Virus record (IMG/VR): IMGVR_UViG_3300037485_001485
Location: 8,989-72,988 of that record
Source of the DNA: a virus
Reading direction: 5' to 3' (one strand)
Length of the DNA: 64,000 nucleotides
The notes beneath the pieces are model-generated. The model was given only the letters and a program-made list of their open reading frames with translations. It searched no databases and had not been told where the DNA came from. Shown here one piece after another: positions 1,494 to 25,006 of the stretch. How positions within the stretch are numbered: position 1 is the stretch's first letter; each line of letters opens with the position of its first letter. The translations under genes and the position numbers were made by a program.

Positions 1494-3248
1494 TCAACGT
1501 GCGCGTCGTCGCACAAGGAGCGGGGAGGCGGCAGCACGGCGCGGCGGGGTGCGCTTCAGCGCGCGGTAGGCCGCCGAGCGGGCGCGTTGGGTCGTCGCCG
1601 GCTTCCCGGCGACCATCCCGAAGTCGGCGGCGAGCCGGGCCGTGCGGAGCGTTCCAGGGACGAAGGCGCCCTTCGCCCGGATCTCGATCCGCACGGTGTT
1701 CCCCTGCCGGTCCAGCTTGCGCTGGCGATAGCCCGCCGCCCGAAGCGCACGCTGCACGTCGGGGATGGGCCACCGGGTCGCGTCGAACAGGACCGCGTGA
1801 ACGATGCGCGGGTCGGGCAGCTTGGGCAACGGCAGCGCCGCCGTGGGGTTGCTCGCGACGGTGGGGACGCCGTCCTTCAGCGTCTTCATGCGCTCCCAGG
1901 CGTCCATGACGTTGGGGGCATCAACGTGTTCGATGGTGGCGGTGCCGATGTGCGCTGCGACGATTCCGCGCTTTGCATCTACAATCTCGCCGATGCGCTC
2001 GTCAATGGTGTCGTCGGCGTGGAGATACCAGATCGTCGTCGGGCGCGTCTGCCCGATGCGGCGGATGCGATCTTCCGCCTGCTCCTCAGCCGCCGGGGTG
2101 TACCACCGCTCTAAAAACAGGAGGTGGCGAGCCTTCGTCAGCGTGATGCCTTCCTTCGCGGCCATGCTCCCCAGGAACAGGGGCACCTTGCCCGCTTGGA
2201 AGGCGTCGATGGCGACCTGACGCTGTTGCCGCGAGTGTGTGCCGTCGAGCCGGACGAACGGAATGGACAGGCGGGACAGGGCTTGACCCAGGAGATCGAG
2301 CACGTCGGAGAACATGCCGAAGATCACGACGGGCTCCCCCCGCTTGACCATGTTCGCGGCCCACGCCGCCGCACCGGGGACTTTGCCGCGCCCGAGGATG
2401 CGCCGGAGGTAGGCCACCTTCGCCAGCGGTTCCGCCGCCAAGGCGCGCGTCGCCGCGCTCTCCGCAGCCGCCGCGTCCTCCAGCACGCGAGGGAGGTAGT
2501 CGTCCAGCCACTCGCTGAACTCCTCCTTGGCCTTGTCGTACTCCATGCGAATGTCGTCGGGGATCGTCGTCTTCAGGGTGACCCGGCGCTTCGGCGGGAT
2601 GTCGGGTGCCACGTCCTCCAGCAGTCGCCGCAACATGACCGGGGGCGTCGGCCCGAACATGCTCCGCAGCGTCTCCAGTTCGTCGGCGTGGTTCACCAGC
2701 GGCGTGCCCGAGAGGAGCAGGACGTGCGGCGCCGGGGCACAGATCGCCTGCAAGGCCCGTCCCCGCTGCGTCTCCTCGCCGGCCTTCGCGTAGTGCGCCT
2801 CATCCGCGACGATGCACCGGAAGCCCCGAGAGAGGAGGTCAGGGAGCCGCGCCGCGAGCACGTCCCAGGGACAGATCGTGATGTGCGTCCCCTTCGGGAT
2901 GGCGCCGTGAAAGCCCTCGACAACGTGGACCTTCGCGCCGGGAACCCACCGCGCCGCTTCCCGCCGCCAGTTCCACGCGACCGACGACGGGCACACGACC
3001 AGCATCGGGCAGAGCTTCGCGGCGTTTTCCCGCATGGCAACGAGCACTTGCGGCGTCTTCCCGCAGCCGGGGGCATCGGCGAGGAGCACCCGCCAGCCGT
3101 TCGCCGCGAGGAAGTCCACGCCGTCGCGCTGAAACGGCCGCAGCTCCGGCGGGGGCGCTTTCGGGGCGACGCGAGCACGGAGAGCAGACGATCTGGACTT
3201 CGCGGCGTGAGCGAGACGAAGAGCTGCGGTACGGCGGTCAACGGCCAT
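1494..3248 (-). CDS. SNF2-family helicase with an extra C-terminal (Tlr6F-like) domain
   Basis: LRPFQ Q-motif, LADAPGCGKT Walker A, DEAH, SGTP, EGITLT and QAEDRIRRIGQ motifs; start MAVDRR at 3248. Confidence 0.9.
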   Translation of the reverse strand: MAVDRRTAALRLAHAAKSRSSALRARVAPKAPPPELRPFQRDGVDFLAANGWRVLLADAPGCGKTPQVLVAMRENAAKLCPMLVVCPSSVAWNWRREAARWVPGAKVHVVEGFHGAIPKGTHITICPWDVLAARLPDLLSRGFRCIVADEAHYAKAGEETQRGRALQAICAPAPHVLLLSGTPLVNHADELETLRSMFGPTPPVMLRRLLEDVAPDIPPKRRVTLKTTIPDDIRMEYDKAKEEFSEWLDDYLPRVLEDAAAAESAATRALAAEPLAKVAYLRRILGRGKVPGAAAWAANMVKRGEPVVIFGMFSDVLDLLGQALSRLSIPFVRLDGTHSRQQRQVAIDAFQAGKVPLFLGSMAAKEGITLTKARHLLFLERWYTPAAEEQAEDRIRRIGQTRPTTIWYLHADDTIDERIGEIVDAKRGIVAAHIGTATIEHVDAPNVMDAWERMKTLKDGVPTVASNPTAALPLPKLPDPRIVHAVLFDATRWPIPDVQRALRAAGYRQRKLDRQGNTVRIEIRAKGAFVPGTLRTARLAADFGMVAGKPATTQRARSAAYRALKRTPPRRAAASPLLVRRRAR

Positions 3249-3256
3249 GATCCAGC

Positions 3257-3682
3257 CTAACGTGCGGCGCGAAAGACCTGTTCCAGCAGTTCGCGGACGC
3301 TGGGCACGAACCGCATGTGCGGGAGATCGTCCTGGCTGATCCACGCATACCCGTCGCTCTCCCACGTCACGACGGGCTCGCCCTTCCACTTCGTCGCGAC
3401 GAAGGCGTCCAGCACAAACCCTTCGGGGTCGTTCCACGTCGTGAGGTAGCGGAGGTCGGTCGGCGAAAGGCTGATCTCCTCCTCGCACTCGCGGCGAGCC
3501 GCGTCCTCTGCCGTCTCCCCCGCGTCGATCCCCCCGCCGGGGAGGTTCCAGTAGTTCGGCTTCCACGGGGCCGTGATGCCGCGCTTCAGGACGAGCGCCT
3601 GGAGGCGCGGTACGCCCTTCACGGCGCGCTCTTGGACGAGGATGGTGGCAGCGGTGTCGCTGCCGTTGCGGCGCACTTTCAT
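3257..3682 (-). CDS. Nudix hydrolase
   Basis: Nudix box GGGIDAGETAEDAARRECEEEISL; N-terminal MKVRRNG tag. Confidence 0.9.
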   Translation of the reverse strand: MKVRRNGSDTAATILVQERAVKGVPRLQALVLKRGITAPWKPNYWNLPGGGIDAGETAEDAARRECEEEISLSPTDLRYLTTWNDPEGFVLDAFVATKWKGEPVVTWESDGYAWISQDDLPHMRFVPSVRELLEQVFRAAR

Positions 3683-3691
3683 GGGGATCTC

Positions 3692-6600
3692 CTAAACGGG
3701 GCGGCCGACGAGCGCGAGCACGCCGTCGCCGACGGCGCGAGCGCGGATGCTGCCGGGGTAGAAGCCCGCCGAGCCGTAGACCTCGACGCGCCAGTTCGCG
3801 CCGGCCGCCGTGACTTGCACGCCTTCCATCCCCCGCTGCACAAGCCAGTTCCGCACGGCGCCCGGCCCCCACTTCGCGCGGGGGAAGAGGAAGGCGTGGA
3901 CCTCGCGCATCGTGAGCCGCGTCGCCGGGGCGGGGTTGCGGTGGACCGCGATGCCCGCCGCCGGACCCACGGGCTTCGCCCCGGTGGGGTAGGCGGGCCG
4001 CGCCCGAATCCACGCCCACAACTGCGGTTCCGCGAGGCGGGCGAGGTCGTGGACAAGGATCACTTCGGCTTTCAGGGGCTTTTCGTCCACCGTGACGAAG
4101 ACGACGGCGCCTTCGCTCTGAAAGGTAGCGAGCGCACCCCCGCTGATCGTAGAGCCGGGAAGCAGGACGAAGCGCGGGTCGCGCGTGTTTGCCCGCAGGC
4201 AGAACGTGTGCTGGGTGCCATAGCCCCACAGGGGAGCCGACCACTCCGACGCCGTGAACTTGGAGAACGTCGGGTCGTGGTAGTCCACGCAGAACCCCTC
4301 GACGTTCGCCCACGGCTGCGCGGCCCAATTGGGGTACGGCATCTTTCCGTTCCAGCCGTTGCCGCCCTCGATGCGCTGCTTCGTGTTCCAGCCGCGCACG
4401 GTATCCGTGTCAGAGTAGGAGCCGAGCGAGGTCAACTGGCCCGCGTAGGACGACGGGGGCGTGAGGTCGCTCGACGCCTGCCACGGCTGGCCTACGTCGG
4501 CGCGGAACCATCCGCTGCCCGACTTCTGCTTGTTCAGCCACGCCTTCATCGCCCCCCAAGGGGAGATGGCCCCGCTCCCGATGGTGCCCGCCGCCTGCAT
4601 GGTTTCGATCTGCGAAAGCCCATCGGCGTTGACCCGAAGGGACTGCGACGGATCGTTCGTCTGAAGCTCCGTGAAGGAAAGGCCGCGCACGACGCTCCGC
4701 TCGCCGGGGTCGATGTAGTTCTTCCAGAGGCCCGCCGCGCGAGCCGCGACGAGGTAGCGGAGCCACTGCGCGAGGCTCCCCGAGGTTTCGGGGCGAGGTG
4801 TGCCCCCGGAGCCGTACATGCTGCTCAGTTTGATGTCCATCTGGGAGCCGACCTGGGTTCCGGCGCTGGGCTTCGTTCCACTCCCGAGCGCCGCCTTCAG
4901 GGCTTCCGACACCGCCTTGATGATGCCGACTTCTTCGTTTGTGCCCGGTGCAAAGGAGCCATCCGCCGGGTTGCGCTTCCGGGGGAGGCAGTCGTGAAGG
5001 GGCAAGCCCGCCGCTTCCAGCAGTTCCGCGTCCTGAAGGTCACGGAACGACGGGCGCGGGTTGCGGAGCACGTCGCGAACGACGGCGCGGTAGCGTTCCG
5101 GGTTCGACCGGAACCCGCCGAGGATCGCCGGGTTCTTCTTCAGGAGGGGCGACATAGCCGTCGCAGGGATGGGCGGAACGATCTTGCTTCCCATGTAGGG
5201 AATGCCCGTCTGCGCGAGCATCGCCTGCAACGCCTTCGTCGTGAACAGGGCGGCGACGAGCGGGTCGATGCCGAGGGCTTCGGCGAGCATTTCGACCTGT
5301 GCCGATGCCGTCTGTGCCTTGACCTCCGCGTTGTCGATGCGCTTGCCTTCGATCCACTCCTTGTAGGTGCCGCCGTCCTCGACCTTGCCCTTGCCCAAAA
5401 AGAGCAGGTGGACCGCCAAAAGCGTACCCTTGGAACTCATGCCCTTGGCGTCGAGCACGAGCTTCTCCGGCGTGCGCGGAGTCGAGCCGATGACACCCGT
5501 TCCGGGCTGGATCTTCTCGTAGGATCCGCTCGCCAGCCGCACGGCGTAGACCGAGCCGCCCGAAAAGTCGGTGCGGGTCAGGGTGCCGATGGGCAGTTCC
5601 GAGTAGACCGCCAGCGTCGGCGCGACCTGCACGGCAGGCCAGCCGAGGGACTTCGGCGCCGGGAACACGATGCCCTGCTGGGCCGCCGCTTGCGGGTCGG
5701 ACACGGGCTTGAAGTAGGTGTCCCAGCTTGGATAGGCGTAGTAGCGGACAACGCCGCCGACGATGTGCGAGCCGTTGGGCAGCGCCGCGATCTGCGCGTT
5801 CGTGGTCAGTTCCGCGCCCGTGACGATGGGGACGCCGCCCACCACGGTCGGGTCGGGCAGACCGGGGGGCGGCTGGACGTTTACCTTCCCGCCGCTCTCA
5901 TGCGCGTAGACGAGGAAGTAGACCATCGCCTGTGCAATAGTGCTCGCCACCATGCCCGCCGCGTCCGGAACCGCGATGGTGACGATCTTTTCGCTCTGGA
6001 AGATGGAGTCGGCGAAGAAGCCGAGCGTGACGGTGTTCTTGCCCGCTTCCATGATCCGAACCGAGGCGTCGTAGTTCGGCTCCAGCATCATCGAAGCGAA
6101 GCCCGCCCCCACGTCGGTGACCACGCCCTTCACCTTTGACGCCGCTTCCTTGATCAGCGGGGCGAGGAGGGCGAGGTTGTCCCCAACCGAGACGATCTGC
6201 TTGCTCTTCGGGCCGGCGGTGACCGGCGCCGTGACCTCCGCTGCCGCTGCCGCTGCCGCCGTCTTCGGGGCCTTCGGCGCCTTCGGCGCCTTCCCCACCG
6301 TCGAGGGGTCGGAGTAGCCTTCGCCCCACGCCGTCGCGACGCTCTGGCCCAAGGAAGTCACTTCATACGCTTTCTTGCCCGTCGCGGAAGCGCCCGCGTA
6401 GGTGAACAGGCCGAGGTCGGCGAGCTTCGACAAGTAGGCGCCGCGCTGCGGGATCGTGCCCTGGTAGTCGAACGCGCTGCTGGACCCCGAAGAAGCGGCG
6501 TACATCTGTTGCTTTGCCGCTTTCTCCGCGACGTGGCCGAACAGGGCTTTTGTCATAAGGAGCTTCACGGCGTCGCCCTTGATGTAGGCGTGGAGCGCCT

Positions 6601-7831
6601 GCAAGGCCGCGACGACGCCGGGGCTCATCCCGCCTACGGAGGCGGCGGGCGCCGGGGCGGCGGGCGCCGCAGCCGTCGGGGTGGACGTGGCGCCGACGAG
6701 CGACGCCAGCGGGGGCACCGCGAAAACCGCGATGGGCACCTTCAAGTTGGTTTTGTACCAGTCGAAGCCCCCCGGAAGCTCCACGACGGCGGCGGCCATC
6801 TGCGCGAACTCCGCGAACTCCGACTCGACCTTCTGGTTGGACGAATAGGATCCGTATTCGGGATGCAACTCCGACCAATCGCCCACGGAGTAGTGATACC
6901 AGACGGTCTTCTCGCCGTTCGGAGAGAACACGACGAGGACGGTGCCGCTGTCCATGCCAACGGGAAGCGTCTTCCACGCCGTTTTCTTCGGCAGCACCTT
7001 GCCCCACGGCCCCGAAGAGGCGGCGGGCACCGGGACAGCGGCGGGAGGGCCTACCGGCGCGAGATTCACGACGGGGCCGATGTAGCTGGACCCCAGCGAC
7101 TCGGCCTTTCCCGCGTAGAACACGGCCTTGGCCGACGCGCACATCGCCGCGAACTCTTTTTCGGTGAGGTACGTTTCCTTGTAGGCTCCGGGCTGGGTGT
7201 CGGCCGGACCTCCGACCTTGGACCAATCCCCGGATGCGTAGTGGAACCACGCGGTCAGGTCTTCGGCCGGGTCGGTCGAGTAGACGACGAGGATGGCCCC
7301 ACCGCCCTTCTGCACCCGCGTCGGGAGCGCCTGGATCTGCGCTTCGGTCATCGGGGGCAACCACGCCGGGGGCGCGGGCACCGGGGAACCGGGCGCCGCA
7401 GCGGCGGCGATCATCGACGCAAAGGCCACCGCGTCCCACCCCGAGACGCCGAGGTTCTGCACCGTGCCGCCCCCGGCGAGCGCCGCGTCCACGAAGCTCT
7501 GCATCTTTTCTTCGGTGAATGCGGCGCTGGCGTATTCACCGCTCTCCAGATTGATCTGCGACCAATCACCGAACTTGTAATGGAACCACGCGATCTTTGT
7601 CCCGTCGGACGTCGTGACGAGGAGTAGCACGCCCTTCTTGTTGGGATCCCCCGGCAGACCCGCGTCCGGCAGGCTCGTCACGTCCAGCGCAACGAGTGCG
7701 GCGGCGGGCGCCGAGGCGGCGAGCCCAACGAGGGCGAGCAGGCCCTTCGACGTGAGCAACGCCAGGAGGGCGTCCGCGACGCCGCTATCGTAGGGGTTGC
7801 GGCGAGTGGGGCGTAGCTGAGAGGCGCGCAT
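3692..7831 (-). CDS. 1379-aa multidomain protein: three W(F/Y)HY..GDWS repeats, possible ADP-ribosyltransferase-like domain, C-terminal Tlr6F-like domain
   Basis: Long ORF with strong codon bias; internal repeats and five basic-NP motifs seen directly; the enzymatic call is inference. Confidence 0.75.
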   Translation of the reverse strand: MRASQLRPTRRNPYDSGVADALLALLTSKGLLALVGLAASAPAAALVALDVTSLPDAGLPGDPNKKGVLLLVTTSDGTKIAWFHYKFGDWSQINLESGEYASAAFTEEKMQSFVDAALAGGGTVQNLGVSGWDAVAFASMIAAAAAPGSPVPAPPAWLPPMTEAQIQALPTRVQKGGGAILVVYSTDPAEDLTAWFHYASGDWSKVGGPADTQPGAYKETYLTEKEFAAMCASAKAVFYAGKAESLGSSYIGPVVNLAPVGPPAAVPVPAASSGPWGKVLPKKTAWKTLPVGMDSGTVLVVFSPNGEKTVWYHYSVGDWSELHPEYGSYSSNQKVESEFAEFAQMAAAVVELPGGFDWYKTNLKVPIAVFAVPPLASLVGATSTPTAAAPAAPAPAASVGGMSPGVVAALQALHAYIKGDAVKLLMTKALFGHVAEKAAKQQMYAASSGSSSAFDYQGTIPQRGAYLSKLADLGLFTYAGASATGKKAYEVTSLGQSVATAWGEGYSDPSTVGKAPKAPKAPKTAAAAAAAEVTAPVTAGPKSKQIVSVGDNLALLAPLIKEAASKVKGVVTDVGAGFASMMLEPNYDASVRIMEAGKNTVTLGFFADSIFQSEKIVTIAVPDAAGMVASTIAQAMVYFLVYAHESGGKVNVQPPPGLPDPTVVGGVPIVTGAELTTNAQIAALPNGSHIVGGVVRYYAYPSWDTYFKPVSDPQAAAQQGIVFPAPKSLGWPAVQVAPTLAVYSELPIGTLTRTDFSGGSVYAVRLASGSYEKIQPGTGVIGSTPRTPEKLVLDAKGMSSKGTLLAVHLLFLGKGKVEDGGTYKEWIEGKRIDNAEVKAQTASAQVEMLAEALGIDPLVAALFTTKALQAMLAQTGIPYMGSKIVPPIPATAMSPLLKKNPAILGGFRSNPERYRAVVRDVLRNPRPSFRDLQDAELLEAAGLPLHDCLPRKRNPADGSFAPGTNEEVGIIKAVSEALKAALGSGTKPSAGTQVGSQMDIKLSSMYGSGGTPRPETSGSLAQWLRYLVAARAAGLWKNYIDPGERSVVRGLSFTELQTNDPSQSLRVNADGLSQIETMQAAGTIGSGAISPWGAMKAWLNKQKSGSGWFRADVGQPWQASSDLTPPSSYAGQLTSLGSYSDTDTVRGWNTKQRIEGGNGWNGKMPYPNWAAQPWANVEGFCVDYHDPTFSKFTASEWSAPLWGYGTQHTFCLRANTRDPRFVLLPGSTISGGALATFQSEGAVVFVTVDEKPLKAEVILVHDLARLAEPQLWAWIRARPAYPTGAKPVGPAAGIAVHRNPAPATRLTMREVHAFLFPRAKWGPGAVRNWLVQRGMEGVQVTAAGANWRVEVYGSAGFYPGSIRARAVGDGVLALVGRPV

Positions 7832-7833: not shown

Positions 7834-10800
7834 CTATGCTCCGACGGGAAGCATGAAGGTGATTCCGCTGCCCGACTTGCCGAGGGCAGGGGGCAAAGCG
7901 GCAAAGAACGCCGAGAGGTCTGTGCTCTCACCGACCCGGATGACGATGGCGGCCCAGTTTTCCCCTTCGGTCAGGGCCACGGTCGAAATGTCGTCCCCCG
8001 AGGTGACGACCGCGCCCCCGAGACGCACAGTGCGCCAGCCCGAGGGGGTGCGCTGGTAGATCAGCATGGACGCCGCGCTGCCGGAGAGTGTGCGTTCGCC
8101 GAAGACGATGACGCTCCCTGCGGGCAGGGCATCGAGCTGCCCGGTGGTCGTGAGCGACGTACCCGTTGCAATGGGCGCCGTCGGGGGCGCCATCGGGGGC
8201 GCCTTCGTCAGCCCGTAGTTCGCCATCGAGAGCCGGAGGAACGCGAGGATCGCGCCCGCGACCGTCGAGGCGGTGTCGGGCTTGATCTTGACGTAGGTGA
8301 ACTCCGGCCCGTCCTTCAGCGTCACCTTCAGCTTGCCCCCCACCAGGGCGAACGTCGTGACGTAGGCGTGTGACGTCGTCCCTTCATGCAGGAAGAACGT
8401 CAGGGTAGGCGCTACCCCGAACTGAGCCATGCCGGCCGAGACTCCCATGAAGCCCTTCTCTTTCACGCGGCCGAGCACGGCGGCGGCGAGGGCGTGAACT
8501 TCGTCCAGCGTGATCGTCGGGGCGACGGGCGCCGGAGCCGCAGCGGCGGGCACCGCATACTTCGCATATAGCTCAGTAACCGGCGTTTCACCGACAACAT
8601 TCCCCACAAGCAGGATCTCGTAGGTGCCATAGGGAAGATCGCCCGTCTCTCCCACCCACCCGGCGGCGTTGAACCGCTGGAACTTCCCCCCGCTCAGGCC
8701 GCCGATGTAGAAGTCGGTGCCGCCCACGCTCTTCAACAGCGTATAAACGCCTTGCTTGCTGCCTTTCTTCAGGACCGACTCCGTGCCGATCTGACCGACA
8801 AAGGGAGGCGTCGGTTCCGTCGGCTGCGCGGCCGTCGGTTGCGGCGCGGCCGTCGGCGTTTCCGAGGAGAGCATCCCCGCGAGCCAGCCGGCGCGGCCCT
8901 TCAGCGTCGTCGCCAGATCCCCACGCTGGGCATAGTCGAGGGTCGCGGCGAACCCTGGGTCTGCAACGAGGCTCCCGATGCGCTTGATCATCTCCGCGCC
9001 GTTCGTCGGGGTCGCGCCATCGAAGACCTTGAAGAGCGTCGGGTTCTGCCCCGCCGAGAGGAAGTTCCCCCACGTCTGCGCCGCGTTCGTACTCCAATCA
9101 GACGCACTCTTCTTCACGCTGCCGGTCGAGCGGTAGTCGAGCGCGGCGCCTTGATCGACGCGGAGGTAGTGCTTCGGGTTCTGGTCCCCGAAATCGTCGG
9201 TGACGAGCAGGTTGTCGTACTTCGTCGCCGGTCCCTTTCCGACCACGTCGTAGTTCACCATCCACACGTCGGCGGGGAACTCGCGGCGAAGGAACTGGCG
9301 TTCGGCAGGGTCGAAGTTGCCGCTCGTCCGCTGGATGTAGCCGCCCTTCCACGGGGAGAGGAGCGCCAGCGCGTAGCCGCTGCCCTTGCTCCCGAGGAGC
9401 GAGGCGTTGACGACGCGAACGTCGGGCGCGTTGATGCCGAGGAGCCGGTAGAGGTGCGACGCGAGGGCTTCGGTCTGCGCGTGCTCCGTGTTCTTGAAGA
9501 ACTTGACGTAGACCGTCTCCCCGGTGAGCGGGTCGGTCATCTTCCCGCCGGGGAAGCTGCCAAGCTGCGCGCCCTTCGTCGCATTCGCCAGCCGCTTCGC
9601 CACGGCCCCCGCGCCGCCGACGTGCCCCCAGATGGGATCGGGCGCGAGGGAGTAGGGAAGCGCGGATGCGGGCCACGGGTAGGGGTCTACGGACGTCACG
9701 GACTGCGCGTAGGTCGGCGTCGGGGCCGGGGCCGCGACGGGCATCGGGGCCGGCGCCGGGGCCGGCGCCGGGGCCGCGACGGGTGCCGTGGACTTCTTGC
9801 CCCCTGCGAGAACCTGCTGGGCCGCCGTGTAGTAGGCCGAGAGCATGATCGCGTCGTCGGCTTCCGGTCCCGTGCCGCTGCCCTCGTTGACGAGGAGGAC
9901 TTCCATGTCGAGCGTGTCATACACGTCGTCGGCGAAGAGCCCCGGCATGAAGTCGCCGTACTCCGTCAACTCGCGCCAGAGGCCCGAGGCGTCGCGGACG
10001 AAGAACGTCTCACCGGGGGACGCGCCCCCCGTCACGATGGAACCGTCGGGGAGGGCGTCGATCTCCGTCATGCTCGACACGTCCGTCAGGCCCGCCGTCG
10101 AAGTCGCGAAGGTCGTCGGGGCGCTGGGCGCCGACAGCGTGGCCTTCAGCGCGGACACCGCGAGGTAGGGCTTGAAGGCGTTGGCGATGTCGGCAGCGCG
10201 CGACACGACGAACGACGTGAGCGACCCCGAGGGAATGGGGTACTCCAGCTTCGTCTTTGGCTCGCCCCCCGCCATGATCAGAGCGATGAGGACGCCGCCC
10301 TTCGCTTCCACCATCACGCCGTTGCCGGGGGACGCCACCACTGTCCACGGCCCGACCGATGTGCCGCTCGCCGTCGTGCTGGGGAGGAGTGCGGCGATCT
10401 TCTTCGCGATGTTTTCGACCATGCCGACGGACGAGGACGCGGCCGTGAACGTAAACGCTGAGGCGACGGGGGCCGGGGCCGGGGCCGACACGCCCATCTT
10501 CGCTACCACGGCGCTCCGGAGTGACTGCGCGCGTGCCGCGAGGTAGCCCCCGAGGGTCATGCCCACCGGGATGCCCGCCGTCATCGTGTAGCCCGCCCAC
10601 CCGGCCAGCACGTCCACGAAGGGCTTGACTGCCGGGAGCACCAGGGCGTCCGCCACCGGAAGCATGAGGAACGGGCTGGCCTTCGCCTTCGCGAACACGA
10701 CGGGCGTCTTGTCGTTCTTCGGCACGAAGAGCATCGAGTCGAGGTCGGGCGCCGCGTTCGTGCCGGGGAGCGGGAGCTTCAGCGAGCCCGATGCGCGGAA

Positions 10801-12585
10801 CATGAGCGAGGCGCCGGGATCGACGCGGATGACGTGCGGGTCGGGCGGCACCCAGAGCATGTTGTCGTAGGTGAGGCCGACGACATCGTAGTCCGCGAGC
10901 CACACGTCGAGCGGGAACGTCGCGGCCAAGTAGAACTGCTCAGTCTCCGGCACCGCCGCGCTCCAGCCCGAGGCGCTGGACGCGACCTGCTTCAGCCCGT
11001 CGATCCACGGCGAGAGGATCGCCACCTTCCCGTCCACCATAGCGGGGCGCATGTCGGGCGCGGGGGCACCGAAGGCGCGGTAGAGGTGCGCGGCGACGAC
11101 TTCGCTCGCGACCATGTCGGGGTTCGGCGGATACTTCGCGAGGTAGAACTCCCCGGTCTTCGTGTCGCGGAGGACTGCACCCGCCAGCCCGCCCCCCGGC
11201 TTCGGCTTGGAGTAGACGAGGCGCGCGGCGATGGCGTCCACGCCACCCCCGTCGGCCCACACGGGGTTCGGCGAGTACGGCTCCAACGCCGCCCCGAAGG
11301 GCACCGCGATGGATTCGATGGGCGACGGGGGCGGGGGGTTCGGATCCCCCTTGGCGGCGGCGGGCGCCGCCGACGGCTTCGGCGTCGAAGCCCCGGCGAT
11401 GCCGGAAACCTCGACGCTCGCCCCTTCCGCTGCCAGGGCTTGCGCGAGCTTCGTCGCGACGTTCGCAACGGTGTCCTTCTTCCCGGTCCAGCCGACGAGC
11501 GACGCTTCCGAGGTGGCGGCGTCGCTCTGCGTCGCCGCCCACATGAGCGGGGGGTAGCCGTACTTGCCCTCCTTCCCCGTCCACATGAAGCCCGCGTCCT
11601 TGATGATCTCCTTCACGGCGTAGGTGTCGCCCGAGACGAACAGACCCACGCCCGGCTTGAACGCGATGGTGATCTTGCCCGCTTCGGGCTTGGGCGCCTT
11701 CGGCGCGGCGGCCATCGGCTTCGCGCTTTCGTCAGGGAGAAGGCGGAACTCGCTGTCTCCGTAGCTCATAATCAAGCGGTGAGCGGCGGGGTCGATGCCG
11801 ATGTGCGGCAGGTACTCGTTCGCCAGCGCCAACGCCTGCGTCGGCTTGGTCTTCGACCCGTAGAAGTTCGTGACCGTGAAGTCGTTGGCGTCTACGAGGG
11901 CGGTTTTCGGCGCCGCCGCCGAGCCCGAGAACACACGCCCGCCCCCCATCTTCAGCACCTTGCCGAGATTCTTGTGCTTGAAGTCGTAGAAAGACTTGAT
12001 CGCGAACTTGGACGTAACGAGCGAGACGGCCATCTCGCCGCTCGTAACGGAGAACAGGATGTCCCCGACTTCGACCGCGTCGGCGTTGCCGATCAGCTCC
12101 CCATAGGTTTGCTTCCCGCCGGGCAGGGCGGGATTGACCGCGTAGGCGTCGGGCGCGTTGTGCCGCGTGAGCACCGGGGCGAGGCGCGTCGGGGGCGGCG
12201 TGAGGGGCGCGGCGCCGATGCGCCGGGGCGCCTGCGCGAGCGGCGTCCGCGCCGGGGCGGGGTTCGCCAGCGCCTTGGCCTTGCGGCCGGCGGCGAACGC
12301 CGAGCGGCCACGCGCCGCCGGAATGAACAGGTCGAAGGAGGTGGGCTGCGCGTCGGCCGGGACCGCGTGGACCTCGTAGACGGTGCCCTGAAGCGACGGC
12401 CCCGAGACGAGGGCGATGCCCGCGTCGTCCCAGAGGTAGACGCGCGTGACCCCGCTGGCGTCCCGCTGCGAGATCACGCTGGGCTGGCGGCGGTGCCCGT
12501 GCGCCCCGAGGACGCGCGTGACGGCGTTCTTCTCGGCGAGTTCAGAGGACACGGACGCAAGGGCGGCGCGAAGGGCAGCGATCAT
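7834..12585 (-). CDS. 1583-aa multidomain protein with two PI3K/HipA-like kinase domains
   Basis: Two copies of Y-x-K...E-x-x-A-x-HLYR-x-x-G-x-x-APD...SPW...DVW-x-x-(D/N)YDVVG...DN...RVD-x-G-x-x-L-x-(F/Y)R; also a GDTYAVKEIIK-x-AGF-x-W module. Confidence 0.8.
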   Translation of the reverse strand: MIAALRAALASVSSELAEKNAVTRVLGAHGHRRQPSVISQRDASGVTRVYLWDDAGIALVSGPSLQGTVYEVHAVPADAQPTSFDLFIPAARGRSAFAAGRKAKALANPAPARTPLAQAPRRIGAAPLTPPPTRLAPVLTRHNAPDAYAVNPALPGGKQTYGELIGNADAVEVGDILFSVTSGEMAVSLVTSKFAIKSFYDFKHKNLGKVLKMGGGRVFSGSAAAPKTALVDANDFTVTNFYGSKTKPTQALALANEYLPHIGIDPAAHRLIMSYGDSEFRLLPDESAKPMAAAPKAPKPEAGKITIAFKPGVGLFVSGDTYAVKEIIKDAGFMWTGKEGKYGYPPLMWAATQSDAATSEASLVGWTGKKDTVANVATKLAQALAAEGASVEVSGIAGASTPKPSAAPAAAKGDPNPPPPSPIESIAVPFGAALEPYSPNPVWADGGGVDAIAARLVYSKPKPGGGLAGAVLRDTKTGEFYLAKYPPNPDMVASEVVAAHLYRAFGAPAPDMRPAMVDGKVAILSPWIDGLKQVASSASGWSAAVPETEQFYLAATFPLDVWLADYDVVGLTYDNMLWVPPDPHVIRVDPGASLMFRASGSLKLPLPGTNAAPDLDSMLFVPKNDKTPVVFAKAKASPFLMLPVADALVLPAVKPFVDVLAGWAGYTMTAGIPVGMTLGGYLAARAQSLRSAVVAKMGVSAPAPAPVASAFTFTAASSSVGMVENIAKKIAALLPSTTASGTSVGPWTVVASPGNGVMVEAKGGVLIALIMAGGEPKTKLEYPIPSGSLTSFVVSRAADIANAFKPYLAVSALKATLSAPSAPTTFATSTAGLTDVSSMTEIDALPDGSIVTGGASPGETFFVRDASGLWRELTEYGDFMPGLFADDVYDTLDMEVLLVNEGSGTGPEADDAIMLSAYYTAAQQVLAGGKKSTAPVAAPAPAPAPAPMPVAAPAPTPTYAQSVTSVDPYPWPASALPYSLAPDPIWGHVGGAGAVAKRLANATKGAQLGSFPGGKMTDPLTGETVYVKFFKNTEHAQTEALASHLYRLLGINAPDVRVVNASLLGSKGSGYALALLSPWKGGYIQRTSGNFDPAERQFLRREFPADVWMVNYDVVGKGPATKYDNLLVTDDFGDQNPKHYLRVDQGAALDYRSTGSVKKSASDWSTNAAQTWGNFLSAGQNPTLFKVFDGATPTNGAEMIKRIGSLVADPGFAATLDYAQRGDLATTLKGRAGWLAGMLSSETPTAAPQPTAAQPTEPTPPFVGQIGTESVLKKGSKQGVYTLLKSVGGTDFYIGGLSGGKFQRFNAAGWVGETGDLPYGTYEILLVGNVVGETPVTELYAKYAVPAAAAPAPVAPTITLDEVHALAAAVLGRVKEKGFMGVSAGMAQFGVAPTLTFFLHEGTTSHAYVTTFALVGGKLKVTLKDGPEFTYVKIKPDTASTVAGAILAFLRLSMANYGLTKAPPMAPPTAPIATGTSLTTTGQLDALPAGSVIVFGERTLSGSAASMLIYQRTPSGWRTVRLGGAVVTSGDDISTVALTEGENWAAIVIRVGESTDLSAFFAALPPALGKSGSGITFMLPVGA

Positions 12586-12683: not shown

Positions 12684-12959
12684 TTAGCGGCGGCTGCGGC
12701 GGGAGCGGCGGCGGCGGTTCATCTTCATCTTGCGGCTGCGACGGCGGGGGTTCTTCTTCGCGGCGCCGAGGCCCGCGAGGCTGAGCACCTTCTTGCCCGG
12801 CTTGGTGTAGGCGAGAAGCGCGAGCGCGCCGAGGCCGAGCGCCCACACGGGTACGCCCATCACGTCTTTCTTCAGATAGTCCATGATGCCGTCGAGTTCG
12901 CCCATGTCGTCGCCCTCGTAGTCGCCGAGGTCGTAGCTTGCCCCATAGTACCCGTACAT
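12684..12959 (-). CDS. small membrane protein with acidic YG-rich head and KKNPRRR tail
   Basis: MYGYYGASYDLGDYEG, one TM (VPVWALGLGALALLAY), Arg-rich C-terminus. Confidence 0.75.
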   Translation of the reverse strand: MYGYYGASYDLGDYEGDDMGELDGIMDYLKKDVMGVPVWALGLGALALLAYTKPGKKVLSLAGLGAAKKNPRRRSRKMKMNRRRRSRRSRR

Positions 12960-12986: not shown

Positions 12987-13928
12987 TCACGCCCCGTGAG
13001 AGTCAATCCACTTTTTCGCCGCCACGAAGCCGTTCGGCCCGCTGAACGCGGGGCCGTGCGGCATGACGGTGTAGGTTCCAGCCGCGATGCGGATGGTCGT
13101 GCCCCCGTAGGCGACCGACCCGGCGGGGTTGACCCGCACGGACGGCTTCCACGTCGTCGGCTGAAGATGAACACGAAGCTGATCGTAGGCGCGGCGCTTG
13201 ATCGCGTCGGCGCCCTTGGCGCGGCTCCCGCCCTTCCCACCGTCGGCCACGGGCACGTCGGTGACGAAGGTGCCGTCCTTCGACACGACGCGCGCAAAGC
13301 GGCGCCCCGTGCGGACGTTGTAGTACGAGTCAATCTTGACGGTCTTCTTGAAGTGCCCGAAGTCCAACGAGCCGATGTCGATGGGCGTCGGGTTCTTCCG
13401 AAGTTCGGCGGCGGTGGCGATGGCGAAGCCGCGCGAGACGGCCTCCCGTTTCGCGACGCCCTGCGAGCGCATCCGCCTCGTCACGGCTTCCGCGACGGCG
13501 TCCCGGTGCTTCGTCCCGCGCCCGATGGACGGGTTGCGCCGCCCTCCGTGGGCCGCGAAAGCCTGCATGAAGGCATCGTGCGCCTTGTCCGCGTTCTCGG
13601 TTCGCATCACGACACCCTGAGAGTGGTCGGTCAGCGTCCAAATGGTTCCGCCGGGGTGAAAAGCCCAGTCCAGTCGGATCTGAGTGCCGTCCTTGGCGGT
13701 GCCCTGCTCGTAGCCCACCGCTCCGTTGCGGCGAGGTCCGCGCCCGATGGACGGGTTGCGGCGCGGCTTGCGGTTCGCCACCGGGGTCGCCGGGGCGAGG
13801 AGGGCTTCGATCCCCGACGCCGCGCCCTGCATCTTCGCGGCGTGCGCGACGGCCTCCGACTCCGAGGCGTAGGTGACTTCACCGACCTTGGAGCCGTTGC
13901 GGCGTAGGATGACGCGGGTGCGCGGCAT
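12987..13928 (-). CDS. basic multi-segment protein with six NP/NG motifs (putative core/cargo polyprotein)
   Basis: RRNG, RRNPSIGRG x2, RRNG, RKNP and RVNP separate short domains. Confidence 0.75.
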   Translation of the reverse strand: MPRTRVILRRNGSKVGEVTYASESEAVAHAAKMQGAASGIEALLAPATPVANRKPRRNPSIGRGPRRNGAVGYEQGTAKDGTQIRLDWAFHPGGTIWTLTDHSQGVVMRTENADKAHDAFMQAFAAHGGRRNPSIGRGTKHRDAVAEAVTRRMRSQGVAKREAVSRGFAIATAAELRKNPTPIDIGSLDFGHFKKTVKIDSYYNVRTGRRFARVVSKDGTFVTDVPVADGGKGGSRAKGADAIKRRAYDQLRVHLQPTTWKPSVRVNPAGSVAYGGTTIRIAAGTYTVMPHGPAFSGPNGFVAAKKWIDSHGA

Positions 13929-14731: not shown

Positions 14732-15289
14732 TCAGCGGGTCGTGCGGCGGCGGGTGCGGGGCTTGGCGGGGTTGTACTTCTTCACGAAGGTCTTCTTGCG
14801 CTGGGCTTCGCCGCCCTGCTCGATGACCTGGGCCGTGAGCACGCCCTTGTCGGTCGCCTGCGCGGAGTAGACCGAGGGGTGGAAGTAGACCTTGATCTTG
14901 CCGTCGGAACGCAGAAGGGGCTCGTCCACGCCGATCTCTTCGATCTTGTAGTCGGGGCCGACGTGCATCCGGAGGACGTTCTTCGCATCCGCCGAGGCGG
15001 CGCGGATGGTCGCGTAGGGGCCGAAGATCCCGATCTGCTGCTCATCCAGCATGAGCCGGACCTTGTAGATCGTGAGCTTCTTGGGCGCGGCGCCGGTCCA
15101 ATCGCCAGCGGCGAAGACCTGCTGGGCCTTCTTGGCCTTGGTCTTCTTGGGCTTCGCCTTGGCCTTTGCGATCTTGTTGGCCGCCGACTTCGCAGCCTGG
15201 GTAGCCTTCGCGGCCTTGCTCTTCTCGGCCTTCAGTTGCGCCTTCAGCTTCTCGATAGCCGTGGCTGCTGCCTTGGTGAACTTCGCCAT
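14732..15289 (-). CDS. Lys/Ala-rich (histone H1-like) basic protein
   Basis: N-terminal AK-rich tract, GPYATIRAA module, C-terminal KYNPAKPRTRRRTTR. Confidence 0.7.
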   Translation of the reverse strand: MAKFTKAAATAIEKLKAQLKAEKSKAAKATQAAKSAANKIAKAKAKPKKTKAKKAQQVFAAGDWTGAAPKKLTIYKVRLMLDEQQIGIFGPYATIRAASADAKNVLRMHVGPDYKIEEIGVDEPLLRSDGKIKVYFHPSVYSAQATDKGVLTAQVIEQGGEAQRKKTFVKKYNPAKPRTRRRTTR

Positions 15290-17036: not shown

Positions 17037-17735
17037 CTACCCGATCTCGATGGCCGTCTTGTAGAAACCGAACATCGCGACCTTCAGCGCGAGGGGGTTG
17101 GTCGCGCCGACCGCCGCCGTGTTCGCGCCGTAGCGGAGCAGGATCGAAAAGGTCGAGTTCCCAGGCAAAGAAATCGGGTGCTTGCGGTACATCCAGATCG
17201 AGCCCGCGCCGTTGTTCATCGAGCCGATCTGGGTCGCGTTCTGCGTGGTGGACACGGAACCGAAGGCGCCGCCGCCCGCACCGATGAGGTGGAGGGGAGC
17301 GATGTCAACCTGGGTCTGGACGAAATCCCAGGTCAAAGTACCGTTGTTCTGCACGTTGACGAGGTCGGTGATCGTCTCGACCGTGTTGAGGGGCACGGCG
17401 AGGGTGGTCAGCACGTTGGCGACCTGGGAGCCCGCGTAGACGAGGCAGGAGAGGCCGTAGGCGTCGAACGCCACGCCGGCCGGAATACGGCCGCCTTCCT
17501 TCAGGGACGTCTCGGCGATGGTCAGGCCGGACGAGAAGCCCTGGCCGACCTGCCCGAGGGGGGTCGTGAAGAGGCGGAAGGTGCCGTTGGCGAGGGCGGT
17601 GCCGACGTTGTGGAGCTGGGTGCTCCAGAGGGACTGCTCGCCGTACCGGAAGAGGTTCTTGGGCTGCTCGAAGGGAACCTGGGGGATCATGTCGCTGCCG
17701 GGGTTGGCGAAAGCGAAGCCGGGAACACCATACAT
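17037..17735 (-). CDS. candidate major capsid protein (single jelly-roll)
   Basis: 232 aa; very strong codon bias; AGGAG RBS; pattern FRLFTTPLGQ...ETSL...GRIPAGVAFDAYGLS...HPISLPGNSTFSILL...LKVAMFGF is jelly-roll-like. Confidence 0.65.
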   Translation of the reverse strand: MYGVPGFAFANPGSDMIPQVPFEQPKNLFRYGEQSLWSTQLHNVGTALANGTFRLFTTPLGQVGQGFSSGLTIAETSLKEGGRIPAGVAFDAYGLSCLVYAGSQVANVLTTLAVPLNTVETITDLVNVQNNGTLTWDFVQTQVDIAPLHLIGAGGGAFGSVSTTQNATQIGSMNNGAGSIWMYRKHPISLPGNSTFSILLRYGANTAAVGATNPLALKVAMFGFYKTAIEIG

Positions 17736-17804: not shown

Positions 17805-19232
17805 TCAGTAGGCCGAGCCCGCCGACATGAAGCCGAGGTCGCCCATGCCCTCACTGGCGACCTGACCGAAGCCCTGGCCGATGGCGCCGAAGCCCTGGCC
17901 GATGCCCGCGAAGCTCTGCCCGATGGCGCCCATGCCCTGACCGATGGCGCCCATCGAGGAGCTGGTCCCCACGCGGGTGTCAACGGTCGCCATGGCGTTC
18001 TTGCGGAGTTCGGCGATCAGCGCGCAGCGGGCTTCCGGTTCCATGGCCGCAATGCGACCGAAGCGGTCGAAGCCCACGGCCTTGACGAGCCAGCCCCAAC
18101 GGTGCCCGCGACGACCCGCGTGGCGGGACATCGGGGAGGCAGCGCGGCTCGTCACCTTCGGCGGCGGGCCGAAGGTCGCGTGGTAGGCGTGCGCGCCGTG
18201 CATGGCGGCCTGCCCTTCGTAGCTGTCGAGGTCGGGGCCGCTGTAGTAGGCGTCGGCCATCTCGGCGTCGGCGTAGGCGCCGAAGCCCTGACCGATGGCG
18301 CCGAAGCCCTGACCGATAGCGCCCATGCTCTCGCCGATGCCGCCGAGGGGCACCACGTCGTAGGCCCCGCCGTCACCGTAGTCGTCCATGTCGCCGAGGT
18401 CAGAGGACTGACCCTTCAGCGCGCGGAACACGTCGAGGACGCCGCCCGCGATCATCGCCGCGATGCCGAGCTTGCGCTTCTGGTCGTCGGAGAGGAACGG
18501 GATCGGGAGCTTCTGGAGCGCGAAGTTGGCGGCGACGCCCGTGAGGGAGTAGCCGACCGGCGCGAGGTAGCTGCGAGCGAACGCCTGTACCGGCGCGGGA
18601 AGCATCCCGCCGACGTAGCGGATGGCCTTCACGCCGTAGTAGTGCGTCGCGCCAGCGGCAGCGCCGAAAGCGATGTAGCCGAGTGCCTTCGCAACAGGAT
18701 GGCCGAGGAAGGGCACCTTGCTGAGGAGATTCTGCACCGGGCGCAGGATGGGGAGGCTGAAGCCCCCGCCCTCGCTGGGGTTGCGCTTCACGCCGTGGCG
18801 ACGGCGGTTCAACTGGTAGCCCGCGTTCTTGCGGTGGCGACGATTGAGCATGTAGCCCGCGTTCTTGCGACGGCGGCTGCGGTTCTTCTTCGCGAAGAAC
18901 GACACGGCCTTGCCATGCGCGCGGAACGACTTCATCGGGTTGAGCGAACGGCGCCGACGGCGGTTCAGCATGTAGCCGGCGTTCCGCTTCATCTTGAACC
19001 GCTTCAGGAGGCGCGCGAGCACGCCCGTCTTCCCGGCACGGCGCCGGTTGTGCCGCATCTTCATGCCCCCGGAAGACCGCCGGCTCTTGCGGCGGTTCTT
19101 GAAGAGCCCCCCGAACAGACGGAAGGCCGTGCGCCCGCGCCGTGCCTTGCGGGCGGTGCGACGACGGCGGGGATTCTTGACGAACAGTGCGCCGCTCAAC
19201 GGGGCGGGATTGCTTCGCAGTACGAGGGCCAC
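17805..19232 (-). CDS. Arg-rich core/membrane protein with about 13 basic-N motifs, hydrophobic helices and GAIGQG(F/M) repeats
   Basis: N-terminal 150 aa of RSNP/KNPRRRR/KNAGYMLNRRR repeats; central TM-like segments; two Gly-aromatic repeat clusters; immediately upstream of the MCP candidate. Confidence 0.8.
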   Translation of the reverse strand: MALVLRSNPAPLSGALFVKNPRRRRTARKARRGRTAFRLFGGLFKNRRKSRRSSGGMKMRHNRRRAGKTGVLARLLKRFKMKRNAGYMLNRRRRRSLNPMKSFRAHGKAVSFFAKKNRSRRRKNAGYMLNRRHRKNAGYQLNRRRHGVKRNPSEGGGFSLPILRPVQNLLSKVPFLGHPVAKALGYIAFGAAAGATHYYGVKAIRYVGGMLPAPVQAFARSYLAPVGYSLTGVAANFALQKLPIPFLSDDQKRKLGIAAMIAGGVLDVFRALKGQSSDLGDMDDYGDGGAYDVVPLGGIGESMGAIGQGFGAIGQGFGAYADAEMADAYYSGPDLDSYEGQAAMHGAHAYHATFGPPPKVTSRAASPMSRHAGRRGHRWGWLVKAVGFDRFGRIAAMEPEARCALIAELRKNAMATVDTRVGTSSSMGAIGQGMGAIGQSFAGIGQGFGAIGQGFGQVASEGMGDLGFMSAGSAY

Positions 19233-19552: not shown

Positions 19553-20165
19553 TGCCCGGCGACGGACAGGTGTAGGTTCCGCCGGCCAGCCAGAACCGCC
19601 CGTCGCTCGACACGCAGAGCACGGGGGGAACGCCGCCTTCTTCGCCCATTTCGTGGATGTAGCCGCTGGGGCCGTCACCCTTTTTGTGGGTGAAGTAGGT
19701 CAGGTGCCGAAGCTCGCCCAGCGGCTTCACGTTGACCCTGACGTAGCCGCTGCGCGGGTTCGCGTGGTGGCCTTCGCCCAACTCCTCCGCAGCGTGCGCG
19801 AGTCCCATCGGCTTCGCTTCCGCCATGCGGTAGAGGTCGCGCCCGCTCTCTCGCAGGGCGGGGGAGCACTGGAAGTAGATGCGCTGGTGCTTGTGGTCCG
19901 CGTCGAACCCGACGTGCGAGTTCGGGATGTCGTCTTCGCGCACGGCGAACACGGTGTCCTTGGCGGCGCCGAAGGGACGAAGATGCAGTTCCATCAGCAG
20001 ACCGATCTCGACCAAGTGCGGAGGGAAGTCCGGATCGCAGTCGATGACGTGCGTGGGCATCTCGCCCCAATGCCACCGCTTGTAGACCTGTTCCAGCCGC
20101 TTCTGAGCGGCGGGGCCGATCCGCTGGGTCGCACGGCGGGCCGGCGTGCGGCGGGTGCGGGGCAT
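19542..20165 (-). CDS. hypothetical virion protein (MPRTRRT...)
   Basis: Basic N-terminus, YKRWHWG, HANPR junction, YIHEMGEEGG...GGTY...PGI; coupled to the upstream stop. Confidence 0.7.
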   Translation of the reverse strand: MPRTRRTPARRATQRIGPAAQKRLEQVYKRWHWGEMPTHVIDCDPDFPPHLVEIGLLMELHLRPFGAAKDTVFAVREDDIPNSHVGFDADHKHQRIYFQCSPALRESGRDLYRMAEAKPMGLAHAAEELGEGHHANPRSGYVRVNVKPLGELRHLTYFTHKKGDGPSGYIHEMGEEGGVPPVLCVSSDGRFWLAGGTYTCPSPGITR

Positions 20166-20953
20166 CAACGGCTCCGAAGGCGACGACGGCGGCGCGGGTT
20201 GCGGGCGACGGTCCCGATGCGGGCGACGGCCTTGTCGGCGGCGCGGCGAGACGCCGCCGCAGCGGCATCGCGGACGCCGAGGATCGGGGCGAGCACCGGA
20301 CCCAGGACGAACCATGCCGCGACGCCCGCGACGCCGAGGCCGGCTACAAGCCATGCGTTGCGCTGGATCCACCAGAGCCAGTCAGGCGTACCCGGCGGCT
20401 TCTTGTTCGTGATGACGCGCCCGACCTTCTCCAGCCCCTTGCCTACATCCGCCGCCGACGCCGCCGCCGTGTCCACGAGGATGCGGAGGCTCGACTGCTC
20501 ATCGGCGCGGCCCTGTGCGCGCTCGATGGCGTCGGCGCGGCTGTTCAGCCCGAAGTTCCGATAGAGCGGCGCCATGCGCCGGTCTTTGTAGGCGTTCGCC
20601 GCGTCCAGGGCGCGCACACCCTCGTCAATGACGGAGGCGATGCCCGAGGCGCTTCCGCTGCTCGCCCACTTGTAGCGGCCCGCCGCGCGCGTGTAGAACG
20701 CACGCGCTGCCGTCGCCAACGCCGGGTAGCCGACGCGCGCACCGACCGCGAGCCAGTAGGCGACGTAGGCTTCGGCGCTCGCCGCGTCCGTGGGCGCCGT
20801 GTAGAACCAGTTCGACGTCACAAGGCCGCCGCCCACCGCCGAGGACAGCACACGGCCCGCCGTCGCCGCGCTGATCTGCTTGCGTACCTCTGCAAGCACC
20901 TTGTCCCAGGAGAGCGTGTCTACGGGTCCGTGGTAGGCCGCGAGGGCGTGCAT
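20165..20953 (-). CDS. membrane protein with ARNPRRRRR tail
   Basis: TM NAWLVAGLGVAGVAAWFVLG; TGATG coupling. Confidence 0.75.
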   Translation of the reverse strand: MHALAAYHGPVDTLSWDKVLAEVRKQISAATAGRVLSSAVGGGLVTSNWFYTAPTDAASAEAYVAYWLAVGARVGYPALATAARAFYTRAAGRYKWASSGSASGIASVIDEGVRALDAANAYKDRRMAPLYRNFGLNSRADAIERAQGRADEQSSLRILVDTAAASAADVGKGLEKVGRVITNKKPPGTPDWLWWIQRNAWLVAGLGVAGVAAWFVLGPVLAPILGVRDAAAAASRRAADKAVARIGTVARNPRRRRRLRSR

Positions 20954-21765
20954 CAGCGGCTCCTCTGTTCCCGGCCGCCGCGTCGAAGCGCGAGCGTCAC
21001 AAGCACCAGGGCGACGCCGCCGCCGACAGCCCAGCCCCACGTCGGAATGGCCGCCAGCGGCGAACCCCCGGTGAAAAGCGAAGTGCCCTGCTCGTCGGCC
21101 GTGCGATCAGCGGCAGCTTCGGCCTGCGCTTCGGCGGCGTCTTCCTGCTCCAGATCCATCGCGGGGCTGTTGATCTCGTTGACCGCTTCCGACGGGGGCA
21201 CCGACGGCGCTTTGCCGACGACGCGCAACGCCTTGCGGTCTTTGGCCGTCAGCTTCTTCGGATTCTCGATCCGCGCCAGTGCGGCGAGGATGGACAACTT
21301 CCACTTCAGGGTCGCGATCCGCTTGGCCCGCGCCTTGGCGAAGATCGGGCTCTTCTGCGCGCTCAGTCGCGCAATGCGCTCTTTGTACCGCGCATAAATC
21401 TTCACGCGCGTCGCGCGCTTCAGCTTCAGCGCACGGACGATGTAGCCCGGCGCCTTCTCCGGGTTCGGCAGCTTCAGCTTCTTCGCGAGCGCGACGGCGT
21501 CCTTGCGACGCGCCTTGCCGGACTTGATCGCGACGACCAACGCCGCGATGCCCGCCGCAGTGCCGAGCACCGCGCCAGCAACCCAGCCCGCGACGGGCAC
21601 CGTCGCCACGCCCGCAGCGGTGATCGCCAGCGTAGACGCGACGGCGGCACCGCCGGCAACAGACGCCGCAGCCCCGGTCTTGAAGGCGTCGATGGCGATC
21701 TGTTCACCGTCCCCGTAGTGACCCGAGGGGCGAAACGCTCTGCGATAGGGGTAGCCGTGCATCAC
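20953..21765 (-). CDS. membrane protein (two hydrophobic segments)
   Basis: N-terminal FRPSGHYGD; C-terminal TM IPTWGWAVGGGVALVLV. Confidence 0.75.
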   Translation of the reverse strand: MMHGYPYRRAFRPSGHYGDGEQIAIDAFKTGAAASVAGGAAVASTLAITAAGVATVPVAGWVAGAVLGTAAGIAALVVAIKSGKARRKDAVALAKKLKLPNPEKAPGYIVRALKLKRATRVKIYARYKERIARLSAQKSPIFAKARAKRIATLKWKLSILAALARIENPKKLTAKDRKALRVVGKAPSVPPSEAVNEINSPAMDLEQEDAAEAQAEAAADRTADEQGTSLFTGGSPLAAIPTWGWAVGGGVALVLVTLALRRGGREQRSR

Positions 21766-24924: not shown

Positions 24925-25006
24925 CGCTACCTCTCGCTTCTGGCTAACCCTACCGGGGCGCCGGGTGCGGGGCAACGGCTACCCCCCACCCCGGAGGGCC
25001 ATCGGC

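Follow-up and report, generated by a model that had tools for sequence, protein, structure and literature searches.

The question raised by this locus is why an SNF2-family helicase and a nearby protein of 1379 amino acids (aa), encoded by the same virus, carry the same small domain at their C-termini, each behind an Asn-Pro (NP) dipeptide. The window analysed here is a stretch of 64,000 bp comprising bases 8989-72988 of an IMG/VR virus record of 72,988 bp, a genome with a terminal repeat of 127 bp and a G+C content of 68%. We find that the two tails are copies of an undescribed alpha/beta domain of ~70 residues and that its family is widespread in uncultured viruses of bacteria, where it occurs as a free protein, at the C-terminus of SNF2 helicases, or built into proteins of capsid-interior assembly. 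The reading we favour, with a probability of roughly 40%, is that the domain acts as a portable capsid-interior module and that the helicase and the 1379-aa protein would be virion cargo.

Four consecutive genes on the minus strand of the window encode a 1583-aa protein, the 1379-aa protein, a NUDIX hydrolase and the SNF2 helicase. The two carriers and their tails are placed as follows, in window coordinates:

1494..3248, minus strand, gene of the SNF2-family helicase (carrier 1, 584 aa), with its ATG at 3248
1590..1829, minus strand, tail domain copy 1, helicase residues 474-553, from BLASTP to copy 2 and the envelope of a hidden Markov model (HMM)
1497..1589, minus strand, Arg-rich C-terminal extension after copy 1, helicase residues 554-584, from the translation; relatives keep the extension and its sequence varies
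3692..7831, minus strand, gene of the 1379-aa protein (carrier 2), without a Pfam or PHROG family
3695..3928, minus strand, tail domain copy 2, residues 1302-1379 of the 1379-aa protein, from BLASTP to copy 1

The first carrier is an SNF2 helicase by the presence of both lobes, the N-terminal SNF2-related lobe (Pfam SNF2-rel_dom, PF00176, E 1.8e-15, aa 40-196) and the Helicase_C lobe (PF00271, E 1.4e-13, aa 301-399), and it matches PHROG 62, 'DNA helicase', with E 1.6e-80. A listed open reading frame (ORF) of 944 aa was rejected as the helicase gene, being an upstream over-extension of the gene that starts at ATG 3248.

When the two carriers were compared, their C-terminal ~75 residues aligned with 20 identities in 62 positions (32.7 bits, E 9e-8 in a single BLASTP comparison), a significant match that bears out the claim of an earlier, sequence-only reading of this DNA that one small domain ends both proteins. 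Used as a query in six frames against the whole genome, the 1379-aa tail matched itself and the helicase tail (E 1.4e-5) and nothing else. The family HMM likewise found exactly two copies in the genome, both of them these tails; since it was built with both tails included, its E-values for them are circular. Both tails are retained on both proteins in all three related IMG/VR contigs (L003, L004 and L005), with identities of 83-85% for the helicase tail and 66-86% for the 1379-aa tail. The tails are homologous, and chance is excluded. The C-terminus of a 313-aa protein (window 12987-13928) was considered as a third copy and rejected, as it resembles the helix motif but scores -0.6 bits.

In a distance tree of 175 domain copies, the window's helicase tail grouped with the tails of other SNF2 helicases, and the nearest relative of the 1379-aa tail, beyond its own orthologues, was the window's helicase tail. 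From this placement we suggest that helicase-plus-tail is an old architecture and that the giant protein probably took its copy from the helicase lineage; given the long branches of the tree, this is a suggestion only.

The family extends well beyond this virus. A tail-only profile of six tails (A2), searched against 1.84 billion representatives of a 50% clustering, recovered 140 cluster representatives at E<=1e-3, 8 of them at E<=1e-10. The domain is C-terminal in 54 of the 140, free-standing (<=150 aa) in 36, internal in 29 and N-terminal in 21. A larger alignment (A3) of 35 free proteins and both tails, 37 sequences in all, aligns cleanly and gives the consensus VQxLLF..AxxW..HG..RxRQxxPxxF..FRTI..GVxAVVG, in which the central part can also be written RxRQxDPxxF, and many of the free members end in Lys/Arg-rich tails. 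No Pfam family covers the 37 aligned members. With the tails alone, Pfam at E<=10 gave nothing for the helicase tail and only DUF2299 (E 0.12) for the 1379-aa tail, PHROGs gave nothing usable for either, database hits with precomputed Pfam annotation had no domain over the tail region, and protein-atlas and cluster look-ups returned no named family and no informative names. DUF5894 (PF19246) was tried as the family and set aside as unrelated: it weakly matched three of the 37 members (best E 0.013) and nothing in the virus genome, and in one record (G003) it matched a different, Cys-rich basic ORF. Queried by tblastn with P0075, a central member of the family, 50,697 phage records yielded no match at E<=1e-3, and the matches of a T5-like protease-domain fusion (L013) to cultured phages were confined to residues 50-230, the protease part. 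As a separate observation, the profile order is swapped at three loci (L025:7353-7739, L026:9863-11755 and L027:1275-1571), with positions 46-78 first and 5-37 directly after, which suggests circularly permuted forms of the domain that would begin with a conserved NEHAARQ-like stretch.

The proteins to which the domain is fused point towards the capsid. A Pfam census of 101 non-free representatives, with the four longest left out for their size, gave these counts:

Helicase_C, 18 representatives
SNF2-rel_dom, 17 representatives
Peptidase_S78_2 (the XkdF prohead protease), 12 representatives
DUF6582, 4 representatives
Mu-like_Pro, Phage_Mu_F, Phage_portal_3 and SLT_3, 1 representative each

Residue-level mapping puts the domain N-terminal of an XkdF protease in six proteins; three others have it immediately behind an HK97-type Peptidase_S78 and one has it behind a ClpP-type protease. 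In one protein each it precedes Mu protease I or stands between portal and MuF. The protease fusions also contain an acidic, coiled-coil-like stretch downstream of the domain that is scaffold-like. In the cultured Aeromonas phage HJ05 the domain is found in a 454-aa coding sequence, H10PHJ05_32, directly 3' of the XkdF protease coding sequence (tblastn E 0.04, 88% of the query), and in another record (G002) a domain-protease gene lies ~1.8 kb upstream of a Phage_cap_E capsid gene. We favour the capsid-interior reading because the common denominator of the partners is a location inside the assembling capsid, one that covers four kinds of prohead protease, portal-MuF, a gene in the scaffold position and giant proteins of no family.

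The Asn-Pro that had been pointed out ahead of each tail is found there as ASNP and HRNP, and further NP sites occur within the second carrier:

1845..1850, minus strand, Asn-Pro of the ASNP linker before the helicase tail (ASNP residues 465-468, NP 467-468), with ASNP kept in L003, L004 and L005
3932..3937, minus strand, Asn-Pro of the HRNP linker before copy 2 (HRNP residues 1297-1300, NP 1299-1300), with HRNP kept in L003-L005 and in the homologue P0007
4967..5134, minus strand, four basic-x-NP motifs clustered inside the 1379-aa protein, residues 900-955, at positions kept in the homologues P0006 and P0007
7793..7798, minus strand, RRNP motif, residues 10-13 of the 1379-aa protein; P0007 likewise starts with an RRRNP stretch

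NP is enriched upstream of the domain across the family. Among the 108 domains with at least 30 upstream residues, 51 (47%) have an NP within those 30 residues, compared to 2587 of 35,940 background windows from the same proteins (7.2%), and NP is the commonest dipeptide in this interval. The distance from NP to the first strand is 4-17 residues in 48 of the 51 cases; Arg stands at -2 of NP in 23 of the 51 and is the commonest residue at +1 (16/51) and +2 (14/51). NP also occurs just downstream of the domain in 17 of 63 domains with at least 30 downstream residues, and free proteins whose sequence begins with the domain lack it. The proteome of the virus itself contains 60 NP in 19,003 residues versus 30 +/- 5 in shuffles, and 13 basic-NP-basic sites versus about 0.5 expected (maximum of 4 in 1000 shuffles). 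The motif is beyond chance, and because it pervades the virus proteome it is not specific to the two carriers. Among the 67 predicted proteins, seven have (K/R)-x-N-P plus an Arg-rich tail at the C-terminus, in three cases directly after a hydrophobic, membrane-anchor-like segment, and internal NP sites are present in three more:

12684-12959, 14732-15289, 20165-21040, 23962-24975, 35465-37273, 48993-49769 and 50437-51084, proteins ending in NP plus a polybasic tail
53347-55023, 12987-13928 and 17805-19232, proteins with internal NP sites

These NP-polybasic tails are retained in orthologues with differing lengths and codons and are therefore under selection as protein; the signature looks like a proteome-wide tag or a DNA-binding tail. 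The 313-aa protein (12987-13928, minus strand) contains an insert of ~70 residues that is absent from its L003 and L004 orthologues and is flanked by two copies of RRNPSIGRG, which fits NP sites as module joints.

An AlphaFold2 model of residues 1295-1379 of the 1379-aa protein, made from the six-tail alignment, is confident, with a predicted local distance difference test score (pLDDT) of 83 and a predicted template modelling score (pTM) of 0.71. The modelled order is strand-helix-strand-strand-strand-strand, and the first eight residues, which bear the NP, are disordered. A VIA-align search with the tail model over 48,161 chains gave a best Z of 3.9 (root-mean-square deviation 2.8, 57 residues) and no chain at Z>=5, and the A3 profile found nothing below E 1.3 among PDB sequences. 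The weak structural neighbours are mostly ferredoxin-like or RNA recognition motif (RRM) domains, including the C-terminal RNA-binding domain of the Hera helicase (Z 3.0-3.5; Foldseek E about 1.5). The six-sequence tail alignment has two columns with invariant Arg, R54 and R69 in A2 numbering, which lie on strands 3 and 4; in the 37-sequence alignment R69 is nearly invariant and R54 is conserved in the consensus only. The domain core is not notably basic.

From the domain architecture we infer encapsidation, a binding partner and cleavage in the following scheme. The domain would hold its carrier in the capsid interior, either via an interior capsid component or via the packaged DNA through the basic flanks, and the SNF2 helicase and the 1379-aa protein would be packaged in the virion and reach the host together with the genome, as P1 DarB does. 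The basic-x-Asn-Pro linker could be a processing site that frees the cargo from its tag, or else a DNA-contacting turn. If the linker is cut, the cutter might be a protease, for which a transglutaminase-like protein encoded at 26368-27258 would be one candidate, or the linker might cleave itself as in FlhB/HrcU-type proteins and RsgI. FlhB/HrcU-type proteins self-cleave at Asn-Pro and serve here as precedent only. A paper on RsgI concerns autoproteolysis and mentions 'Asn-Pro' 10 times (PMC10328401), likewise a precedent only; among the papers listed by our literature search, none pointed to an Asn-Pro prohead-protease site for phages. The transglutaminase-like protein (minus strand), which lies inside the same-strand block that ends with the helicase, has a transglutaminase-core, papain-fold domain (Pfam E 4.8e-8), a C-terminal hydrophobic segment and an RRRR end; a role as processing enzyme or as cross-linker is conceivable.

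Capsid-targeting signals are known from T4, whose internal proteins carry the capsid targeting sequence, and from HK97, whose gp4 protease has a C-terminal targeting segment. Like these signals, the domain is a portable element on unrelated proteins, prohead proteases among them, that would place its carriers in the procapsid, often near a possible processing site. Unlike these short peptides, it is a folded domain of ~70 residues that also occurs as a free protein and can be N-terminal, C-terminal or internal in its carriers, and its binding partner and cleavage are hypothetical. A T4-type targeting sequence is a short N-terminal leader ending in a prohead-protease site, whereas the two carriers have a folded C-terminal domain in a genome in which no prohead protease was found. 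The comparison with P1 draws on one source (PMC5512222), according to which DarB, a methylase plus SNF2-type ATPase, is a component of the virion head. Like DarB and the SNF2-containing polyvalent proteins described there, the helicase studied here is an SNF2-type ATPase of a bacterial virus with large multi-domain proteins of no family nearby. DarB is carried in the head and acts on injected DNA, whereas the packaging of the window's helicase is presumed from its architecture, and the methylase and metallopeptidase domains of DarB and the polyvalent proteins are missing here. The Pfam models for the 'large polyvalent protein-associated domain' (LPD) gave no match on either tail at E<=10.

Several results weigh against the capsid-interior reading. 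No capsid protease, portal, terminase or HK97-type capsid protein was recognised in the genome (Pfam at E<=0.01 on all ORFs >=400 aa, and PHROGs), and an XkdF protease sought directly in it was not found; the cleavage step therefore has no assigned enzyme in this virus. The NP motif is missing upstream of the domain in the protease fusions examined. No solved structure matches the tail model (best Foldseek E 0.23 against the PDB), so the fold gives no functional anchor, and some low-scoring hits of the A2 profile are false: these are ankyrin, WSC and TSP3 proteins, whose matches fall into several short pieces. Finally, a plain nucleic-acid-binding role accounts just as well for the SNF2 partners and for the polybasic flanks that are often present.

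This last role is the main rival. The sequence-only reading had proposed a 'modular virion-core or DNA-targeting domain'; modularity holds, a virion-interior role fits the protease, portal-MuF and HJ05 scaffold-position partners, and DNA targeting is what competes with it. In this alternative, which we regard as rather unlikely, the domain would be a nucleic-acid-binding accessory module, a ferredoxin/RRM-like sheet with invariant arginines and basic arms that tether the carrier to DNA. For the helicase that DNA would be its substrate; for head proteins and the free copies it would be the packaged genome. The two conserved Arg columns on strands 3 and 4, the Arg/Lys-rich ends of many free members and of the helicase tail, the preference for Arg after NP, and the seven virus proteins with NP-polybasic ends all speak for it, and the N-P-R-R stretch could be read as an SPKK-like minor-groove turn. 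The ferredoxin-like and RRM neighbours also point this way, in particular the RRM-like C-terminal domain of Hera and DbpA (PDB 3i31, 3i32 and 7pmq), which is likewise small, alpha/beta and C-terminal on a superfamily-2 helicase, and whose strands and helix follow one another in similar order. The resemblance to Hera and DbpA is marginal, however (Foldseek E 1.2-1.5): the tail has no counterpart of the second RRM helix, and sequence similarity is lacking. All structural matches lie under the level that is safe for fold assignment, and a core that is not notably basic also speaks against this role. Moreover, because prohead proteases act in DNA-free procapsids, DNA binding leaves the 12 or more protease fusions unexplained. 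A second alternative, that the domain is a protein-protein module unrelated to encapsidation, either an oligomerisation unit or a protease-regulating, pro-domain-like unit borrowed by helicases, strikes us as very improbable. Subtilisin pro-domains are among the weak structural neighbours (Z 2.8-3.0) and the domain directly adjoins four kinds of protease domain, but these structural scores are at noise level, and a pro-domain role leaves the free copies (36/140), the portal-MuF insertion and the SNF2 tails unexplained.

The tails had also been likened to Tlr6F, and the one model with which this identification could be checked gave it no support. Two sources describe Tlr6F as a small protein of uncharacterised function that occurs in polinton-like viruses, virophages, giant viruses and some phages, and of which a few peptides were seen below threshold in PgVV particles (PMC4642659; bioRxiv 10.1101/2022.07.28.501842); a third equates it with Pfam PF19058/DUF5754 (PMC12220804). 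This model of 49 positions, with a cut-off of 27.4 bits, matched none of 16 virus records carrying the domain (the window's genome and 15 others) at E<=10, none of the 37 family members at E<=1, and neither tail at E<=10; it was also missing from all 36 database hits that had precomputed Pfam annotation. We consider it improbable that the domain belongs, as a distant member, to the Tlr6F family and shares whatever role Tlr6F has. Like Tlr6F/DUF5754, which is reported across very different DNA viruses including phages, it is a small uncharacterised viral protein or domain. Two weak leads point towards viruses of eukaryotes: among the three protein-atlas clusters nearest to the tail is a viral one of 104 aa that bears the label Preplasmiviricota (score 0.91, 213/256 features), and a Foldseek search of viral models matched a 97-aa protein of Armadillidium iridescent virus (E 4e-3, TMq 0.64) and also small pandoravirus proteins. 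The Foldseek search further matched a 460-aa protein of Pseudomonas phage SM1. Unlike Tlr6F/DUF5754, it spans ~70 positions rather than 49 and is not seen by PF19058; the Tlr6F motif quoted for the comparison is a provisional one. Among 28 loci retrieved, not one could be recognised as a polinton-like virus, virophage or giant virus.

The remaining members of the carrier operon are the following:

3257..3682, minus strand, gene of the NUDIX hydrolase (141 aa), between the two carriers, Pfam NUDIX E 2.9e-18
7834..12585, minus strand, gene of the 1583-aa protein, in the same operon, without the tail domain and of no known family

The tagged helicase ends a same-strand block of ~33 kb, beside the 1379- and 1583-aa proteins; the block is called a late operon from its gene order, strand and content. 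A second SNF2-like helicase, which is untagged, is located among the replication genes. The 1379-aa protein has relatives in the three related contigs, at 58-59% identity over the full length and, for one that is 5'-truncated, at 74% over residues 732-1379. Its N-terminus (residues ~60-340) contains three repeats of a W-(F/Y)-H-Y-x-x-G-D-W-S module that is kept in P0007 and to which no family was assigned. The 1583-aa protein shows two HipA-like kinase signals, at residues ~477-531 (E 0.083) and ~992-1061 (E 0.034), both under the curated cut-offs.

Elsewhere, the apparently complete genome encodes PolA, an SbcC-like ATPase, a DUF3987 primase-helicase, a PD-(D/E)XK nuclease and AAA_24. A 232-aa protein (17037-17735, minus strand) falls in no Pfam family and shares 54-99% identity with 569 database homologues. 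It is modelled as a jelly-roll (pLDDT 63), for which capsid proteins of viral jelly-roll type and cement proteins of phages give the best, though weak, matches (Foldseek E 6e-3; VIA Z 7.0); it is a candidate capsid or cement protein of a widespread group of uncultured viruses. A complex prediction of the tail domain with this protein scored 0.00 and is uninformative in either direction. PDB sequence searches with the 675-, 337- and 602-aa proteins of the virus and with two HJ05 proteins found nothing. The lack of recognisable terminase, portal, HK97-type capsid and prohead protease genes, together with several late proteins that end in membrane-anchor-like segments, raise the question of whether this is a tailed phage at all; with its jelly-roll protein, many membrane-anchored proteins with polybasic tails, and terminase and portal undetected, the 73-kb virus is seemingly non-canonical.

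The broadest form of the proposal would make the domain a universal 'capsid-interior address', with the NP linker as its release site, common to tailed phages, this seemingly non-canonical virus and, via remote Tlr6F kinship, polinton-like viruses, virophages and giant viruses. We consider it a long shot; if true, it would provide the first function for Tlr6F and a single cargo-loading device across both great realms of double-stranded DNA viruses.

Phages are known to package enzymes in the head and to inject these along with their DNA, and the address tags known to us are short, lineage-specific peptides. If the capsid-interior reading is correct, a folded, shared module would be a sequence-searchable marker with which virion cargo could be predicted in uncultured viruses, as well as a handle for loading foreign proteins into capsids. 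Independently of that reading, a large family outside Pfam, with 140 representatives at 50% clustering, is now named, and the Asn-Pro and polybasic signature across the virus proteome is a second, testable oddity.

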